Shown here in pieces: positions 39,513 to 48,571 of a stretch of DNA of 64,000 bases. The notes beneath the pieces were generated by a model, which was not told the DNA's origin, searched no databases, and worked only from the letters and a program-made list of their open reading frames with translations. The translations under genes and the position numbers were made by a program. How positions within the stretch are numbered: position 1 is the first letter of the stretch; each line of letters begins with the position of its first letter. This DNA is from Escherichia coli (GTDB lineage Bacteria > Pseudomonadota > Gammaproteobacteria > Enterobacterales > Enterobacteriaceae): NCBI RefSeq assembly GCF_003334315.1, contig NZ_QOWR01000018.1; one strand, 5' to 3'.

Positions 39513-40017
39513 ACAGGCTCGTGAGGCTCTGGATGCCTGGATATGTCGACCAGGAATGACACAGGAGCAGGCGACGATATTAATCACTGAAGCATTCTGG
39601 GCTTTGAAAGAGCGCCCGAACATCGATGTTCAGCGTGTCACAGATGAAGGTGGCGCGGTTGATCAGCGAGCGCTTGGCGTTAATCGAGTGAAGATATTCG
39701 AACGCTGGAAGGCTATCGACACCAGGGATAAGCGTGAAAAGTTCACGGCGCTAGTGCCTGCAATTATGGAGGCTATCCGGATTAATGATTTCAGGTTGTA
39801 TCGTGAAATTAGTGACGGAAAAAGCATCACGTACATGATCGCCGGGTTAAACAAAGAATATGGCGATGTGGTGGAGTCCGGACTGCTTTTTGCTGATCCT
39901 GCCGTAGTGGATCGTGAAACTGACGAACTTATAGAAAAAGCAATTGCTTTCAAACTTGCGTATCGACAGCAATACCAACAAAAAGCTGGATGGAATTATG
40001 AGCCTTCTTTTTGCTGA
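39496..40017 (+). CDS. YdaT-like early-region protein (173 aa)
   Basis: Position immediately after the cro-like gene; weak resemblance to Rac YdaT. Confidence 0.45.
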   Translation: MKITPEQAREALDAWICRPGMTQEQATILITEAFWALKERPNIDVQRVTDEGGAVDQRALGVNRVKIFERWKAIDTRDKREKFTALVPAIMEAIRINDFRLYREISDGKSITYMIAGLNKEYGDVVESGLLFADPAVVDRETDELIEKAIAFKLAYRQQYQQKAGWNYEPSFC

Positions 40018-40963
40018 ACGCCCACTGGTTATAAACACACAGCTTGCGATGAAGATTGGCTTAAATGAAGCCATTGTGTTGCAGCAGTTGCATTACTGGT
40101 TGAGAGATACCAATTCCGGCATGGAATGTGATGGTGTTCGCTGGATTTACAACACAACGGAACAATGGCTGGAACAGTTCCCATTCTGGTCAGAGTCAAC
40201 GTTAAAGCGCGCGTTTGCAAGTCTGAAAACGCTGGGGCTTTTGCGTTGTGAAAAGCTCAATAAATCAAAGCGCGATATGACCAATTTCTACACGATCAAC
40301 TATGGGAGCGAGCTTTTAGATGGTGGCAAATTGAACGAATCCATCGGTTCAAAATGCGCCGCTCCATCAGGTCAAAATGACACGATGGAAGAGGTCAAAA
40401 TGAAACGCTCCATTGGTTCAAAACGACCCAATGTCATCGGGTCAAAATGGCCTGATGATCTTACAGAGAATACAACAGAGATTACTACAGAGAATAAAAA
40501 CACTTTTCGTCCGGAAGCTTCGCAACCGGACCCGCAGACCGCTGAACAGGATTTTTTAATCCGGAACCCCGACGCGGTTGTGTTTAGTGCGAAAAAACGC
40601 CAGTGGGGTAGCAGGGAGGATTTGGCGTGTGCGCAGTGGATTTGGGGGCGGATCGTGAACCTTTACGAACAGGCTGCCAGCGACGATGGAGAGATCATGC
40701 GACCAAAAGAGCCTAACTGGACAGCCTGGGCCAATGACGTGCGCACAATGCGGATGCTGGATGGCAGAAGCCACAGACAAATTTGCGAAATGTTTGGTCG
40801 GGTACAGCGAGATCCATTCTGGGTAAAAAACATCATGAGCCCGTCAAAACTCCGCGAAAAATGGGACGAACTGGTCATCCGCTTGGGACGTTCACCTGTA
40901 CAGCGTTGTGTGAATCATATTTCTGAACCGGATACAGAAATTCCGCCTGGTTTCAGGGGATAA
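39998..40963 (+). CDS. putative phage replication initiation protein (O/YdaU-like N-terminal domain)
   Basis: 321 aa from MSLLFAERPLVINTQLAMKIGLNEAIVLQQLHYWL; position in the replication module. Confidence 0.5.
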   Translation: MSLLFAERPLVINTQLAMKIGLNEAIVLQQLHYWLRDTNSGMECDGVRWIYNTTEQWLEQFPFWSESTLKRAFASLKTLGLLRCEKLNKSKRDMTNFYTINYGSELLDGGKLNESIGSKCAAPSGQNDTMEEVKMKRSIGSKRPNVIGSKWPDDLTENTTEITTENKNTFRPEASQPDPQTAEQDFLIRNPDAVVFSAKKRQWGSREDLACAQWIWGRIVNLYEQAASDDGEIMRPKEPNWTAWANDVRTMRMLDGRSHRQICEMFGRVQRDPFWVKNIMSPSKLREKWDELVIRLGRSPVQRCVNHISEPDTEIPPGFRG

Positions 40964-41003
40964 GTGTTGATTTCAGGTCATGAGGTAATTTTAAGGAGGA
41001 CTT

Positions 41004-41426
41004 GTGGCAAAAGTTTTTACACAGGAAGAGCGGGAAAAAATTAAAGAGCAGGTGGTCGAACTTGTGCGCCAGAGCGGTCGCGAGACATTACGACAGTTGG
41101 AAGCTAAAACAGGTGCGACAAGATATCTGATGAGCATTCTTGCCAGAGAGCTGGTTGCCAGTGGTTATGTATACAACTCCGGCTACGGGTTATTCCCGTC
41201 TGAACAGGCACGAAAGGACTGGCAAAATGCCCGCAAAAAACTCTCTAGGGCGAAGGTGAAGAAACCCGCTGTGGTTGATCCGGACCTTATCTGGTCACTA
41301 CCTGATGGAGAAATACGTCGCTACGACAGTCGTCTAAACATAATCTGTCGCGAGTGCCGGAAGAGTGAAGCTATGCAGCGTGTACTGGCTTTCTATCAGG
41401 GTAATTTTCAGGAGGCGGTACTGTGA
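41004..41426 (+). CDS. hypothetical protein (140 aa), early region
   Basis: ORF with upstream AGGAGG RBS; no recognizable family. Confidence 0.5.
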   Translation: MAKVFTQEEREKIKEQVVELVRQSGRETLRQLEAKTGATRYLMSILARELVASGYVYNSGYGLFPSEQARKDWQNARKKLSRAKVKKPAVVDPDLIWSLPDGEIRRYDSRLNIICRECRKSEAMQRVLAFYQGNFQEAVL

Positions 41427-42107
41427 GTGAAATTAGCTATCAGGCTTCAATTACCGCTGGCATTCGCATCAAAGGAGAGGAGCATGGAAATAAAACCAGA
41501 GGATTAGTTAAGCAATATCGTTTTATTTCCGATAAAAGAGGATGACCCTCGTAATCAGGTTAATTTTCTTTATGAGCCATCGGAAAGACCATATTGCCAT
41601 CACGCTTCTGTCCGGGTTGACGAAAAAGAGCGTCAGGTCCGCTGTAAAATCTGAGGTGCAGTTGTGGAGCCATTTGACTGGATGCTCTCTGTGGCGAAAA
41701 GAGAAACCAGACTGGCAGATGATGTAAGGCTCTTGCGCCAGGAGGAACGGGAAAGACGAAAAAATATAGAAAAGCTAATTCAGATTGAGCGTAACGGGAA
41801 AGCGCGGATACGCAGGGTGACAAAATCCAGAACTGAATAATTAAATTTAGCACTGTTAAAAATTTAATCCTTAACCGGAGGGATTTCTGCACCCTCAGAA
41901 CATCAGGAGGCCGCCCGAAAGGGCGGTAGTTAAATGCGAAAGTTTAAAATAATTATTGAAACGGGAATAGCCGGTGGAGATTTCGAGGATGAATTCGAAG
42001 TGGATAATGATGCGACGCCTGATGAAATACATGACGAAGCAAAAGATATTTTCTTTAACTACTGCAATTAATCATATCACGAAATAAAAGACGAAGAGGA
42101 AGAACAA

Positions 42108-42284
42108 AATGGCTGATTTTGGTTCAACTAAATACAACGTCGGTTTTGAAGAATGGCATGAACTGTTAATGGACTATGCAGAGTTACGTGGTGGCAGTGC
42201 TGCTGATGCTGAAGCATGGCGTGATGATTATGAAGCAGGAAAAACTCCGGTCGAAGCATATTGTGATGAGTGGGGCGATGAATG
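42108..42284 (+). CDS. hypothetical small acidic protein (58 aa)
   Basis: ATG with AGGAAG RBS; stop overlaps the start of a further small ORF (ATGA coupling). Confidence 0.35.
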
Positions 42285-42767
42285 AGCGAGGTTAATTATC
42301 AGGAAGGGCATGAAACGGCGGGGCAAGCAAAAACAGTGGCATGGCGATATCGCTACGTGAAAAAAAGGCGTTACGGACTTTCAGGGGAAGTAGTGGTCTG
42401 GTGACTGGAAATATGTACCGAAAAAAGAGGATTGTAACGATAGGCCGAACTATGAAATTCAGGCCTTATTCACTGCCCCGCCAGTCCCGGTTACATCAGA
42501 AGAACTGGTTAAAGCTGTGCACTTTTATGAACAACTAAAACGCGAAAATCCACCAGCATCCGGAAACCTGATTACAGGTTCCCAGATAAGGCAATGAGCT
42601 ACCTGGCGCAGAACGGGCTGATAAGTATGGGGAATGTTTTACGATGAATATTTAGACTAAAGAGTTTGTAACGCTATGTAAGTGATTTTTTCTGGTTTAG
42701 ATATTTATATGTCCGGCTAAATTGAGGTGTGTTTAAATGTTATTGCACATTGATTGTAGGGGGAATA

Positions 42768-42947
42768 ATGAAAAACGCATTGCAGTTTTTGTTTGTTGCG
42801 TTCTGGTTGTTCGCATCATGTATGCCCATCATCTTCACAGCAAGGTATATGGAAAAAGTTGATGTTTTGATATTAATATTTGGATATATAAATGCCCTTT
42901 TTTTAGGGGTGTTCATGGCGGTCATGTGCATTGAATACTGGCGGTAA
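42768..42947 (+). CDS. hypothetical small membrane protein (59 aa, two hydrophobic helices)
   Basis: GGGGGAATAATG RBS/start; MKNALQFLFVAFWLFASCMPIIFTARYMEKVDVLILIFGYINALFLGVFMAVMCIEYWR. Confidence 0.45.
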   Translation: MKNALQFLFVAFWLFASCMPIIFTARYMEKVDVLILIFGYINALFLGVFMAVMCIEYWR

Positions 42948-43204
42948 ATACAGCGAACTCCATTGGTTTAGTTGGATATTTACTGTGCTGGACAAAACGG
43001 TTTGCGGGGAAATCTTAGTTAAGTAGAATGACTGCGGGTACTTGAGGCTATCTGCCTCGGGCACGAACACCAACGGCAGGTAGAGAAAAGCCCCAGTTAA
43101 CATTACGCGTCCTGCAAGACGCTTAACATTAATCTGAGGCCAATTTCATGCTAGACACATGTAGGTTAGCCTCTTACGTGCCGAAAGGCAAGGAGAAGCA
43201 GGCT

Positions 43205-43360
43205 ATGAAGCAGCAAAAGGCGATGTTAATCGCCCTGATCGTCATCTGTTTAACCGTCATAGTGACGGCACTGGTAACGAGGAAAGACCTCTGCGAGGTA
43301 CGAATCCGAACCGGCCAGACGGAGGTCGCTGTCTTCACAGCTTACGAACCTGAGGAGTAA
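43205..43360 (+). CDS. hokD: Hok-family type I toxin (HokD/RelF-like, 51 aa)
   Basis: MKQQKAMLIALIVICLTVIVTALVTRKDLCEVRIRTGQTEVAVFTAYEPEE; upstream in-frame leader ORF from 43148 (mok-like). Confidence 0.85.
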   Translation: MKQQKAMLIALIVICLTVIVTALVTRKDLCEVRIRTGQTEVAVFTAYEPEE

Positions 43361-43428
43361 GAGACCCGGCGAGGGAGAAATCCCTCGCCACCTCTGATGT
43401 GGCAGGCATCCTCAACGCACCCGCACTT

Positions 43429-43455
43429 AACCCGCTTCGGCGGGTTTTTGTTTTT
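43429..43455 (+). terminator. rho-independent terminator downstream of hok
   Basis: CCCGC-ttcg-GCGGG hairpin followed by TTTTTGTTTTT. Confidence 0.65.
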
Positions 43456-43576
43456 ATTTTCAACGCGTTTGAAGTTCTGGACGGTGCCGGAATAGAATCA
43501 AAAATACTTAAGTAGCGCGCAGGGATAAGAGGGATGGTCCCTTAAAGGGGAGAGCTAATTATCCGGAAGGATTCTG

Positions 43577-43828
43577 ATGATGAACATCGAAGAACTGCGT
43601 AAAATTTTTTGTGAAGATGGCCTCTATGCTGTGTGCGTTGAAAATGGAAATCTTGTTAGTCATTACCGCATTATGTGTTTGCGAAAGAATGGGGCTGCGT
43701 TAATTAATTTTGTGGATGGTCGAGTGACAGACGGATTTATCTTGCGCGAAGGTGAGTTTGTCACTTCATTACAGGCACTGAAAGAGATCGGAATAAAAGC
43801 AGGCTTTTCAGCTTTTGCAGAAGAATAA
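43577..43828 (+). CDS. rem: Rem-like prophage protein (83 aa)
   Basis: Size and position between hokD and ydfU as in K-12 Qin. Confidence 0.55.
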   Translation: MMNIEELRKIFCEDGLYAVCVENGNLVSHYRIMCLRKNGAALINFVDGRVTDGFILREGEFVTSLQALKEIGIKAGFSAFAEE

Positions 43829-43894
43829 ACTCATCTACAATCTTGCGCGGGGCTGAACTCCCGCTGAGTAACACCGTGCCACCGGAGAAAACCG

Positions 43895-44173
43895 ATGGCA
43901 CGCAACGTAAAATATTACAATTCTGATAATTCGCCCGTTCTTGCCTGCACGCACGAGCGGTATTCTCACGCATTCAAGTCTGAATGGTTCCAGCACCCTC
44001 CATGCACTGAAGAGCAGGCTGAATGGATAATTCAGTGTTACCGCAGGCGCGGATACGAGGTTAAGAAAGCTCTTAGTCTCGACTACCGTCACTGGATAAT
44101 CTCAGTCAGATTGCCTTACTCCGAACGCCCACCGCGTCCGTCCCGTACATTCCAGCAACGCATCTGGAGGTAA
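43895..44173 (+). CDS. hypothetical protein (92 aa)
   Basis: ORF between rem and ydfU-like gene; its stop lies just before the GGAGG-GTG start of the next gene. Confidence 0.45.
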   Translation: MARNVKYYNSDNSPVLACTHERYSHAFKSEWFQHPPCTEEQAEWIIQCYRRRGYEVKKALSLDYRHWIISVRLPYSERPPRPSRTFQQRIWR

Positions 44174-44174
44174 C

Positions 44175-45224
44175 GTGCGGGTATTACTTCGACCTGTTCT
44201 GGTACCGGAACTCGGGCTGGTGGTCGTTAAGCCGGGCCGTGAATCCATGCCGGTATTCCACAATACCCGGGTACTGGTGGAGCCGGAACCGAAAAGCATG
44301 CGTAATCTGCCGTCCGGGGTCGTTCCTGCCGTTCGCCAGCCGCTGGTGGAAGACAAAACATTGCTGCCGTTTTTCAGTAACGCACGGGTAATTCGTGCTG
44401 CTGGTGGTGCTGGTGCATTGTCTGACTGGCTGTTGCGCCATATTAAATCCTGCCAGTGGCCACACGGCGATTATCATCACAGCGAAACCGTTATTCACCG
44501 TTATGGTACCGGCGCAATGGTGTTGTGCTGGCACTGCGACAACCAGCTGCGTGACCAGACATCCGAATCACTCGAGCAACTTGCTCATCAAAACCTGTCA
44601 GCATGGATGATTGACGTCATCGGTCACGCAATAAGCGGTACGCAGGAGCGTGAATTATCTCTGGCTGAATTATCCTGGTGGGCGGTCCGCAATCAGGTGG
44701 CGGACGCGCTACCGTAAGTGGTATTACGTCGCTCGCTGGGATTACCAGCGGAAAAAAACTGCTCGGTGTACCGCGAAAGCGACATCGTACCGGGAGAGCA
44801 GACCGCCACCAGCATATTGAAACAGCGCACAAAAAATCTTGCACCGTTGCCTCACGCCCACCAGCAACAAAACCCATCACAGGAAAAGACGGTGGTAAGC
44901 ATCACCGTTGATCCAGAGTCTCCGGAATCTTTCATGAAGCTGCCTAAACGTCACCGTTGGGTTAAGGAGAAATACACACGCTGGGTTAAGACACAGCCGT
45001 GTGCTTGCTGCGGTATGCCAGCCGACGATCCGCATCATCTGATTGGTCACGGGCAGGGCGGAATGGGAACCAAAGCACATGATCTCTTTGTGTTGCCTTT
45101 GTGCAGAAAGCATCACGACGAGTTGCATACGGATACCGTGGCATTTGAAGAGAAGTATGGCTCCCAACTGGAGCTGATTTTTCGATTTATCGATCGCGCG
45201 CTGGCAATTGGTGTGCTGGCCTAA
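44175..45224 (+). pseudogene. YdfU-like (DUF968-type, Cys/His-rich) gene interrupted by an in-frame TAA at 44715-44717
   Basis: ORFs 44175-44717 and 44718-45224 are in the same frame separated by one stop codon; combined length 349 codons. Confidence 0.55.
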
Positions 45225-45241
45225 TTTTGTGGAGTAAGTTG

Positions 45242-45619
45242 ATGCGTGATATTCAGATGGTTCTTGAGCGTTGGGGGGCATGGGCGGCTAATAATCATGA
45301 AGATGTGACCTGGTCGTCCATTGCCGCCGGTTTTAAGGGATTAATTCCTTCAAAAGTAAGATCTCGTCCGCAATGCTGTGACGATGACGCGATGATCATT
45401 TGTGAATGTATGGCTCGCCTGAAAAAAAACAACAGCGATTTACATGATTTATTGGTGGACTATTATGTCGGCGGCATGACTTTTATGGCGCTTGCACGTA
45501 AGCATGGGCGATCTGATTGTTGGGTTGGCAGGATGCTCCAGAAAGCTGAGGGCGTAGTGGAGGGCATGCTGATGGTGTTGGATCTCCGATTGGAGATGGA
45601 TGCTGATTGTTCGAAATAA
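45242..45619 (+). CDS. late-gene antitermination protein Q (QuuD-like, 125 aa)
   Basis: [24 protein letters not shown]...; position immediately upstream of the lysis region; GGAG RBS. Confidence 0.7.
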
Positions 45620-45718
45620 TTAAAGGAAAAGTTGCTGTCTGATTTTCATTAGTCTAACATTTTAAATGTTGGAATCGCAACGTAGTTATTATCATATAAC
45701 AGCTTGTTTCCTGATTTA

Positions 45719-45747
45719 GCCAGCCTCCCCAAAGGCTGGTTTTTTTC
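45719..45747 (+). terminator. rho-independent terminator downstream of Q (tR'-like)
   Basis: CCAGCC-tccccaaa-GGCTGG hairpin followed by TTTTTTT. Confidence 0.7.
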
Positions 45748-45774
45748 TAATAAGTATCATTTCGGGTGGGGATT

Positions 45775-46299
45775 TTATTGTTTAACCCATAATAGTTCAT
45801 TGACATTGAATCCCAACTTTTGAGCGGTACGCACATAGTCTGCTTTTACATTATCTGGAATAGTTTGGGTCCTTGCCAGAATCCATAGGTATTCTCTGTT
45901 CGGACCACTGACAAGAGCATACTTATACTCATCATCCAGCTTGATTACATTATAGCCACCATAGAAGGGGCCAAAAAACGAAACTTTCAACGCTGCAGTT
46001 TTAGTATCTCCAGTAAAGTATGCTTTACCTTCGCTCTCGCTCCATTTGTTTTTCGTTGGATCGTATCCACGGTTAAGTACGCGAATCCCTCCGTCGTTCC
46101 GTTTTTCATAAGTAGCGCTGACCTGTTCCAGACCACGTTCGAACCAGTTCTCGAGGCGAGCTATTTCATACCATTTTCCGAGGTAGCGGTTGGCGTCAAA
46201 ATTTGTAATCGGCTGCACACCTTTAGGTGGTGTCGGGGCCTTACATGCTATAAGAGTGAAAGAGAGTGCAATGCCAGTCAACACAGGCCATAACTTCAT
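45775..46299 (-). CDS. Blc-like outer membrane lipocalin lipoprotein (174 aa)
   Basis: Signal peptide with lipobox LIAC; lipocalin motifs (GKWYEIARL, YALVSGPNREYLWILAR). Confidence 0.75.
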   Translation of the reverse strand: MKLWPVLTGIALSFTLIACKAPTPPKGVQPITNFDANRYLGKWYEIARLENWFERGLEQVSATYEKRNDGGIRVLNRGYDPTKNKWSESEGKAYFTGDTKTAALKVSFFGPFYGGYNVIKLDDEYKYALVSGPNREYLWILARTQTIPDNVKADYVRTAQKLGFNVNELLWVKQ

Positions 46300-46491
46300 A
46301 ATAAATCCTGTACTTTTGATAGTTGAGAGTAAGTATGAAAGATAGATGAGTACGACCGATCACTTAAAGAACTTTCCTACTATATTAGGAATAGTCAATA
46401 ACAGAAAAATTGTCAGTGATGAAGCCAGAAAGGCAATTTAGTCCGTGCACTACAAAGTTTATGTGTTAATGAATTAGTCAAGGGGGAGGAA

Positions 46492-47451
46492 ATGATAAAA
46501 AAACCTGTGATTGGGATCAGCGGTTGTTTGGGCGGTTCTGCTGTTCGTTTTGATGGTGGTCACAAAAGAGATGACTTTTTAATGGACAAATTAGTGGAAT
46601 GGGTAACATTCAGACCAGTATGTCCGGAAATGGCTATAGGGCTGCCAGTTCCGCGTCCTGCTCTACGACTTGTGCGCTCGAAGCAAGGAAATATACGGAT
46701 GTGTTTCAGCCACGACCAGAATGAGGATGTGACAGAGAGAATGACAGAGTTTAGTCGTTCTTATATGGACAAATTAAAGGATGTATCGGGGTTTGTGGTT
46801 TGTGCTAAATCTCCCAGCTGTGGCATGGAGCGCGTGCGTGTCTATGATGAAAATGGTAATCGAGGTCGTAAAGATGGAGTGGGACTATTTACGAGCACTT
46901 TGATGGAAAAGTTTTCCTGGCTACCGGTTGAAGAGGATGGGCGATTACATGATCCAGTGCTTCGTGAGAATTTTATTGAAAGAGTTTTTGCTTTGCATGA
47001 GCTCAATCACCTTTACAAGGAGAAATTATCAAGAAGAGAGTTATTAGCTTTTCATAGTCGTTATAAGCTTCAGTTGTTGGCGCATAGCCAGGCAGGCTAT
47101 AAAGATATGGGACCATTTGTGGCTGCAATACACGAGTGGGCGGACCTTGAATCATACTTTGAGGTGTATCGTGATAATCTGATGGCGATTCTCAGAAAAC
47201 CAGCATCACGTAAAAATCACACGAATGTGCTGATGCATATACAGGGGTATTTTAGTAATTACTTAAGTACACGCCAGCGTAAAGAGTTGAGCGAGGTTAT
47301 ACTTAACTATCGCTTTGGCACATTGCCTCTTCTTGCGCCGTTGACTCTGCTGAAGCATTATCTGGGTGAGTATCCTAATGATTACTTGCTTACACAGAAT
47401 TACTTCGATCCCTATCCGGAAGAACTGGCTCTAAGACTGATGGTGAATTAA
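46492..47451 (+). CDS. DUF523/DUF1722-family protein (YbgA/TudS-like, 319 aa)
   Basis: N-terminal IGISGCLGGSAVRFDGGHKRD ... VCPEMAIGLPVPRPALRLV typical of DUF523 as recalled; AGGGGGAGGA RBS. Confidence 0.55.
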   Translation: MIKKPVIGISGCLGGSAVRFDGGHKRDDFLMDKLVEWVTFRPVCPEMAIGLPVPRPALRLVRSKQGNIRMCFSHDQNEDVTERMTEFSRSYMDKLKDVSGFVVCAKSPSCGMERVRVYDENGNRGRKDGVGLFTSTLMEKFSWLPVEEDGRLHDPVLRENFIERVFALHELNHLYKEKLSRRELLAFHSRYKLQLLAHSQAGYKDMGPFVAAIHEWADLESYFEVYRDNLMAILRKPASRKNHTNVLMHIQGYFSNYLSTRQRKELSEVILNYRFGTLPLLAPLTLLKHYLGEYPNDYLLTQNYFDPYPEELALRLMVN

Positions 47452-47848
47452 CTGTATGCGATATCATCTGAAAGTGATGAGTTCCTGTATGCAGGATATT
47501 TACAATCGTAAAAACTACGCTATGATGCTCATAGTGTCAGTTTTTATAAAAATCCTGTTCACGCTAAAGAAAACATTGAGATGCAATTTAATGTTGGTAA
47601 ACATACCAGCCCCAAACGATTTTATTCAATCTGTTTTTATATGAAGATATTTCAAGTGAATATTAAGAGTATATAATATTATTATTGCACGCAGCTATTA
47701 TAATATAACAGATTAGTTTAATGATTTGTTTTTTGTGAGTTAAACACATGGTTTTATAGTTGTGATGCAATGAGATTTTCCTTATTGTTGAACTGGCGAA
47801 TATTGATTTTCCACCTATACTTACCTGGTGTAACCCCAATGATATCAG

Positions 47849-48571
47849 GTGGATAATATGCCATACATATGTTCTATCATTTTGGTGTTGAACTCGTTTG
47901 GTGTCCGAATTGGTAAAGAAGATATTTTGTTTAAAAAAGGAAATGCTGTCCTCATTGAATACAATTTAAAAGATCTTTTTTCGTCAAATACAGATCATCT
48001 AATGATCGTAGATGTTGAGGAGAAAACAGTTAATGATTTCTTTAAAAACTACACACTCTCACCTTTTTCTGTAAGAAGGTTTTATCCGTCATACTTGATA
48101 GTAGAATGTGAAGATTTTTCATTGTTAAAGAACTTGGTTGCATGCTTGAATTGTGATAGCAAAACCGTGGATGTAGTTAGAAATCAAATATCACTTGCAT
48201 GTCTTGCTGTCTTATCTTCAGAGAAAATAGTGCAAAGTTTTTTGTTCGGAAGTCTTAATAGCTTAGGTTGTAAAGTTAAGGCTATTATTCACTCGGATAT
48301 CTCAGCGTCATGGAGACTTTGTGATATATCTTCAAGATTATATATGAGCGAGAGTTTGTTAAAAAGAAAATTAAAAGACGAAGGATTATCGTTTAGTAAA
48401 TTAATTCTTGAAGAACGAATGATGATGGCGCAAAGATTATTGATCTACAGTAACCATACTGTCGGCAAGGTGGCGGGAATATGCGGGTATGACAATGCAT
48501 CATATTTTGTAAGTGTTTTTAGAAGATATTTTGGTGTGCCTCCGCACCAATATTTATCAAGATTTTCTTAG
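47849..48571 (+). CDS. AraC-family transcriptional regulator (240 aa), AT-rich gene
   Basis: C-terminal AraC HTH signature (...GICGYDNASYFVSVFRRYFGVPPHQY). Confidence 0.75.
   Translation: MDNMPYICSIILVLNSFGVRIGKEDILFKKGNAVLIEYNLKDLFSSNTDHLMIVDVEEKTVNDFFKNYTLSPFSVRRFYPSYLIVECEDFSLLKNLVACLNCDSKTVDVVRNQISLACLAVLSSEKIVQSFLFGSLNSLGCKVKAIIHSDISASWRLCDISSRLYMSESLLKRKLKDEGLSFSKLILEERMMMAQRLLIYSNHTVGKVAGICGYDNASYFVSVFRRYFGVPPHQYLSRFS

Follow-up and report, generated by a model that had tools for sequence, protein, structure and literature searches.

The gene ydfU studied here belongs to a lambdoid prophage that adjoins rspB, i.e., lies at the Qin site of K-12, and fills a large part of the window (the whole 64,000-nucleotide stretch of Escherichia coli DNA that was analysed; the positions of the features are collected in Table 1). 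The prophage contains the genes of an integrase, an excisionase and an exonuclease, dicB, repressor/cro, O, hokD/sok, rem, ydfU and Q, and continues with lysis, terminase, portal, capsid and tail genes. In comparison with Qin of K-12, it is far more complete, having integrase, lysis, terminase, portal and tail genes, and carries another type of Q. The place of ydfU is between the replication genes and Q, where lambdoid phages hold their accessory nucleases for recombination and DNA processing.

Just upstream of ydfU there is a conserved 92-codon ORF, for which no PADLOC family match was obtained. A single base separates the end of its TAA from the GTG of ydfU, and the Shine-Dalgarno sequence of ydfU falls within its end, so the two genes look translationally coupled. 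The next gene of the operon, the antiterminator gene, encodes a short (125-aa) Q protein of another family than K-12 ydfT, which points to a mosaic junction just after ydfU. Further on, a lipocalin-family gene and a YbgA-family gene, located between Q and the lysis genes, seem to be prophage cargo ("morons"). In the hok/sok type I toxin–antitoxin locus, the sok antisense RNA (Rfam RF01794, 99.9 bits) overlaps the hokD/mok reading frame, and two SNPs relative to strain IBS28, at 43040 and 43202, are found there. Two ORFs of the nin region are marked by PGAP as pseudogenes in near-identical prophages with the flags "internal stop" and "frameshifted; internal stop", and the window is identical to them there; these lesions are older and common to relatives, whereas the stop in ydfU is private.

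Table 1. Position of ydfU, its parts and its neighbours in the window
Feature	Position	Strand	Details
Lambdoid prophage at the Qin site	32826-64000		adjoins rspB
nin-region ORFs	about 41517-41840 and 42282-42647	+	PGAP pseudogenes in near-identical prophages
hok/sok locus	43036-43210 and 43148-43360	+	type I toxin–antitoxin
Upstream 92-codon ORF	43895-44173	+	hypothetical protein WP_023147795.1 in near-identical prophages
Shine-Dalgarno sequence of ydfU, GGAGG	44166-44170	+	predicted duplex with 16S rRNA 3' end, -10.6 kcal/mol
ydfU (DUF968 family), very probably a pseudogene	44175-45224	+	349 codons, internal ochre stop
5' ORF (ORF list)	44175-44717	+	GTG start, 180 codons, then TAA
N-terminal module, residues 1-160	44175-44654	+	site C-x7-[CH]-x16-C-x2-[HC]
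Premature TAA (ochre), codon 181	44715-44717	+	from base-by-base comparison with close relatives
3' remnant, aa 182-349	44718-45224	+	168 codons, then TAA (45222-45224); same frame as the 5' ORF
C-rich, G-poor segment	44800-44877	+	C 37%, G 14%; 85-160 nt past the premature stop
Possible internal start GTG 44892	44892-45224	+	AGGA at 44881-44884, -4.3 kcal/mol; 110 aa called by gene finders
His-Me (HNH) finger core	45000-45128	+	C276, C279, H287-H288, D303, C310, H313-H314, H318
Antiterminator Q family gene	45242-45619	+	annotation of 13P460A and IBS28, which are identical here
Lipocalin-family gene	45775-46299	-	
YbgA-family (DUF1722) gene	46492-47451	+	

The reading frame of ydfU is broken at a single place. 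The premature TAA is the sole separator between the 5' and 3' ORFs, and 180 + 1 + 168 codons give 349. The original prediction, which was made from the letters alone, had described two ORFs of the same frame split by one TAA, a joined length equal to that of K-12 YdfU and two Cys/His strings, and all of this proved to be accurate: K-12 YdfU (b1560, Qin prophage) is a 349-aa protein with 91% identity, and the strings SCQWPHGDYHH...LCWHC and CACCG...DPHHL...LCRKHHDELH correspond to aa 92-121 and 276-318 of the joined frame. The K-12 gene occupies the same place, with rem/hokD on one side and the gene of the Q antiterminator on the other, and shares with the window copy the 349 codons, the Cys/His motifs and, before the mutation, Glu181; the window copy differs in having TAA at this codon. 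The joined frame is collinear with the PHROG 96 profile (334 positions), which is matched from 1 to 180 and then from 183 to 334. Since this collinearity is accompanied by a difference of only one base from an intact 349-aa ydfU, the pair of ORFs is no chance juxtaposition.

The comparison with other strains indicates what the stop has replaced. Megablast of the 1050 bases of the locus against 5426 complete E. coli genomes gave matches in 4918 genomes. The best of these reach 99.9% identity, and all of the best are annotated as a single ydfU or DUF968 gene. In at least 40 genomes, at 99.8–99.9% identity, an intact DUF968/ydfU gene is annotated across the whole 1050-nt match, with a product of 349 aa where it was read. 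The gene of strains 13P460A, IBS28 and others is identical to that of the window except for base 44715 (1 mismatch in 1050 nt), where the window has T and all close relatives have G. Codon 181 is GAA in 13P460A, IBS28 and K-12; hence, a single G-to-T change has converted the codon of Glu181 into TAA, and close orthologues have a sense codon here and no other change. The suggestion of a recent nonsense mutation was thus borne out, and the alignment with ydfU of K-12 and other strains, proposed as its check, shows a sense codon under the stop. The intact protein (P0031) has an exact match on 810 contigs in public protein data. Residue 181 itself is variable in the family, being Glu in 11 and Asp in 6 of 34 clusters. 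The region 24000-64000 of the window is collinear with IBS28 at 99.72% identity, and only about a dozen differing positions were counted in its prophage part; because of this closeness, the nonsense change is regarded as recent.

In intact YdfU, the C-terminal part is the one that can be recognised as a nuclease domain. The protein with the repaired codon matches Pfam DUF968 (PF06147) with E 1.2e-76 over the complete model (1-171 of 171, residues 160-346), while only model positions 1-21 (E 0.028) are left in the 180-aa ORF. Weaker Pfam matches of the repaired protein are HNHc_6 (E 5.5e-5) and RecA_dep_nuc (E 0.024). The C-terminal part is predicted to have a beta-beta-alpha-metal fold with a conserved catalytic His and zinc ligand, and its closest solved structures are those of P1 Ref and YbcO, with Cap5 and McrA also listed beside them. 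Conservation among the 34 clusters is high at C276 (34), C279 (26), D303 (34), C310 (28) and C/H313 (26), as well as at the histidines H287 (31), H288 (31), H314 (30) and H318 (30), and these nine positions fit a zinc-stabilised His-Me finger. In line with this, both DUF968 and DUF1364 have been placed in group 7 of the His-Me finger proteins (Jablonska et al. 2017, PMC5714182). Neither the protein nor a 34-sequence profile gave a meaningful match in PDB sequence searches, NCBIfam and PADLOC scans of the ORFs and of the repaired protein gave none, and no published nuclease assay of YdfU was found in the literature.

Several known proteins are comparable with YdfU in their construction. P1 Ref (PDB 3plw), a RecA-dependent HNH endonuclease (PMC4330346, PMC3973344), is a structural relative of the C-terminal domain, to which no significant sequence match was found by PDB sequence and profile search; Ref has a disordered basic N-terminus (PMC4330346), whereas YdfU has a folded Cys/His module instead. 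YbcO of prophage DLP12/82 (PDB 3g27, DUF1364) is related in structure to the HNH domain of YdfU, but, at about 96 aa, it stands alone and lacks the 240 residues of N-terminal module and linker. Gp16 of Staphylococcus phage PhiNM1 and Gram-positive DUF968/HNHc_6 proteins combine a NinB/Orf-like N-domain with HNH and share with YdfU a common plan, consisting of a non-catalytic N-module and a C-terminal CxxC...CxxH HNH finger. RecA-dependent nickase activity has been described for Gp16 (PMC12817073). By analogy with Ref and Gp16, intact YdfU might act as a RecA-dependent nuclease and take part in recombination-related processes.

The N-terminal module has its own conserved site, formed in the 180-aa product by C93, H101, C118 and C121. 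Position 93 is Cys in 33 of the 34 clusters, position 101 is Cys or His in 32, and positions 118 (Cys) and 121 (His or Cys) are invariant in this sense in 34/34; W119 and D122 are likewise conserved. The E. coli protein has H101 and C121, and most relatives have C101 and H121. All these residues sit on a hairpin-plus-helix element, and the site probably binds zinc. The module belongs to no Pfam family, and fold searches gave no solved structural relative. No Pfam HNH match was obtained for any of the 34 N-modules, the first strand of the hairpin lacks a conserved His, position 108 being variable, and the test for an Orf/NinB-like domain did not reveal the fold of lambda Orf (1PC6).

These data bear on the idea that both halves carry a duplicated, zinc-binding, nuclease-like motif. 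Conserved four-ligand Cys/His sites are indeed present in both halves, and the nuclease-like character holds for the C-terminal His-Me/HNH domain; it does not hold for the N-terminal half, which lacks a Pfam or PDB relative and a conserved catalytic His. BLASTP of one half against the other gave a non-significant E of 0.36, and hhalign of the half profiles, each of 34 sequences, gave P 0.05 and a probability of 1%, though the alignment was collinear (LCWHHDN vs LCRxxHxELH). The clusters are real and conserved, but as the halves are not significantly similar, their origin by duplication of a nuclease motif is unsupported.

The 180-aa fragment taken alone was folded by AlphaFold2 with pLDDT 93.2 and pTM 0.76, so that, should the N-module be active by itself, the word "pseudogene" may be too strong for the loss. 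It is conceivable, though rather improbable, that the TAA allele is a natural separation-of-function variant, in which the fragment made from the native start would keep targeting or binding without the nuclease. Some chimeric proteins of public protein sets might seem to show the N-module in alternative architectures: in P0188, P0234, P0235, P0209, P0196, P0290, P0169 and P0186, the first 110-300 residues of YdfU pass into fragments of tail-fibre, portal or baseplate proteins. Their junctions are arbitrary, and domain shuffling was rejected for them. They probably arose by deletion and fusion in decayed prophages or by misassembly, and they distort the apparent domain architectures of the family.

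Very improbable is a functional two-gene arrangement, in which the zinc-binding N-terminal half would be a protein of its own and the HNH nuclease of the C-terminal half would be translated by termination–reinitiation at GTG 44718 or else from GTG 44892. It could be suggested by the GTG that abuts the stop (TAAGTG), by the predicted independent folding of the N fragment (pLDDT 93), by the existence of short stand-alone HNH relatives (PHROG 1588, PHROG 23141 and YbcO/DUF1364; PMC5714182) and by the 110-aa HNH-only product that gene finders call. Such a product was called in Logan contig L002 and is on record as P0004, "HNH nuclease domain-containing protein". The family as a whole argues against this arrangement. 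A homologue search covering 1.84 billion cluster representatives gave 2787 homologues; the 349-aa protein can be aligned over its whole length with more than 30 clusters that measure 320-370 aa (25-81% identity), and 173 records of a phage collection cover at least 80% of YdfU in one place. A split at codon 181 was found in 0/34 divergent clusters and in 0/173 phage records. Phages HannyBb (99% identity) and PhiR42_1 have one ydfU CDS each in the order hok, rem, (orf92), ydfU, Q; PhiR42_1 was considered as a split case and rejected, as the second feature under its match is an opposite-strand hypothetical ORF. The original prediction had named two normally separate genes at this position as the result that would overturn it, and the homologues, being single ORFs, show the opposite. 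As the relatives are single ORFs and the window has a TAA, the window copy belongs to the YdfU family by descent and is disrupted: the single polypeptide of 320-370 aa, with N-module, linker and HNH finger, is interrupted in it.

The starts available to the second ORF lead to the same result. The GTG next to the premature TAA has a weak and misplaced Shine-Dalgarno-like pairing (-4.8 kcal/mol), and the site before GTG 44892 (-4.3 kcal/mol) is equally inadequate against the native -10.6 kcal/mol. AlphaFold2 modelling of intact YdfU on a 34-sequence alignment (mean pLDDT 88) showed a disordered stretch at 228-241, and because of this dip in pLDDT the stop would fall some 45-60 residues ahead of the linker, within the ordered N-terminal part; two helices, the variable disordered linker and the His-Me finger domain are left to the 3' remnant. 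A break in an ordered region upstream of the predicted linker, and an allele that is confined to one lineage and differs from intact genes by a single base, both stand against an evolved pair. Since GTG directly follows TAA, some termination–reinitiation is conceivable and may occur at a low level, with no sign of an evolved two-product design: the second ORF has no adequate Shine-Dalgarno sequence, and none of the relatives examined is split. The two-product arrangement, offered earlier as the alternative to a nonsense mutation, is therefore unsupported. The 3' remnant is probably untranslated, judging by the weakness of these sites.

A sequencing or assembly error, with G as the true base 44715 and ydfU intact, hardly deserves credence. 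In its favour, only one base separates the window from many otherwise identical genomes, and the TAA allele is missing from the 5426 complete genomes. With a 73-nt probe that has the stop at its centre, matches were obtained in 2807 complete-genome records (4017 places), none of them perfect, and no exact match of the allele was found among GTDB species-representative genomes. The same T, however, is present in independently assembled Logan contigs of several SRA runs (contigs L002, L004 and L007; runs SRR1122540, SRR3824135 and SRR3951468). The contig of SRR1122540 with TAA was seen in 3 samples and the allele in at least 5 public samples overall, possibly all from one clone or even from the window's own strain. 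These contigs are identical to the window across 1.5-4.4 kb (up to 4384 nt), TAA included, and also carry its SNP at 46306, which is absent from IBS28. Moreover, the change is a substitution, unlike the typical homopolymer-type error. As short-read assemblies carry TAA and none of the 2807 complete records does, the mutation is real, rare and lineage-specific and not an error of assembly. The exact 180-aa product is also on record in public data (P0016). Three other public contigs with a 180-aa "protein" were discarded, as they end 2 bases past codon 180 and carry G, not T.

Programmed recoding, in which readthrough or suppression would yield the full-length protein beside the short one, is practically negligible: nothing but the in-frame arrangement speaks for it, UAA with a G after it terminates efficiently in E. 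coli, relatives plainly encode Glu, and it was rejected because no suppressor or other tRNA gene was found within the window and the Rfam scan of 40000-48000 gave sok as the only match and no conserved element at the stop.

Considering these data together, ydfU is very probably an ordinary recent pseudogene in the Qin-site lambdoid prophage, inactivated by the lineage-specific G-to-T transversion at 44715 that made the GAA of Glu181 an ochre codon. Intact YdfU is one 349-aa polypeptide, made up of the N-terminal Cys/His module, a linker that is variable and disordered, and the predicted His-Me (HNH) finger nuclease domain at the C-terminus. In the mutant, ribosomes loaded at the strong native site would halt after residue 180, the N-terminal fragment that they release would lack the nuclease domain, and the nuclease-coding remainder would be untranslated or translated in traces only. 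The nuclease function of the gene would presumably be lost in this way.

A C-rich, G-poor segment that encodes the variable linker lies past the premature stop. It is rut-like in composition, and one may speculate that Rho would act there on the untranslated RNA and lower the expression of Q. Transcription that would enter ydfU in K-12 is blocked by a Rho-dependent terminator that ranks among the strongest measured (PMC9160355).

In our opinion, the stop in ydfU is one more case of the decay of an accessory prophage gene by point mutation and has little weight alone. It is also an annotation trap, in which gene finders turn one broken gene into a 180-aa "DUF968, partial" and a 96-110-aa "HNH nuclease", and TAA at 44715 can serve as a marker SNP of the lineage. 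If the stop does cause Rho polarity on Q, the inducibility of an otherwise complete-looking prophage could drop. YdfU itself occurs in more than 90% of complete E. coli genomes as a predicted two-module nuclease, and its N-terminal zinc module, which is without a known fold relative, is the only mildly interesting remainder for the biology of the family.
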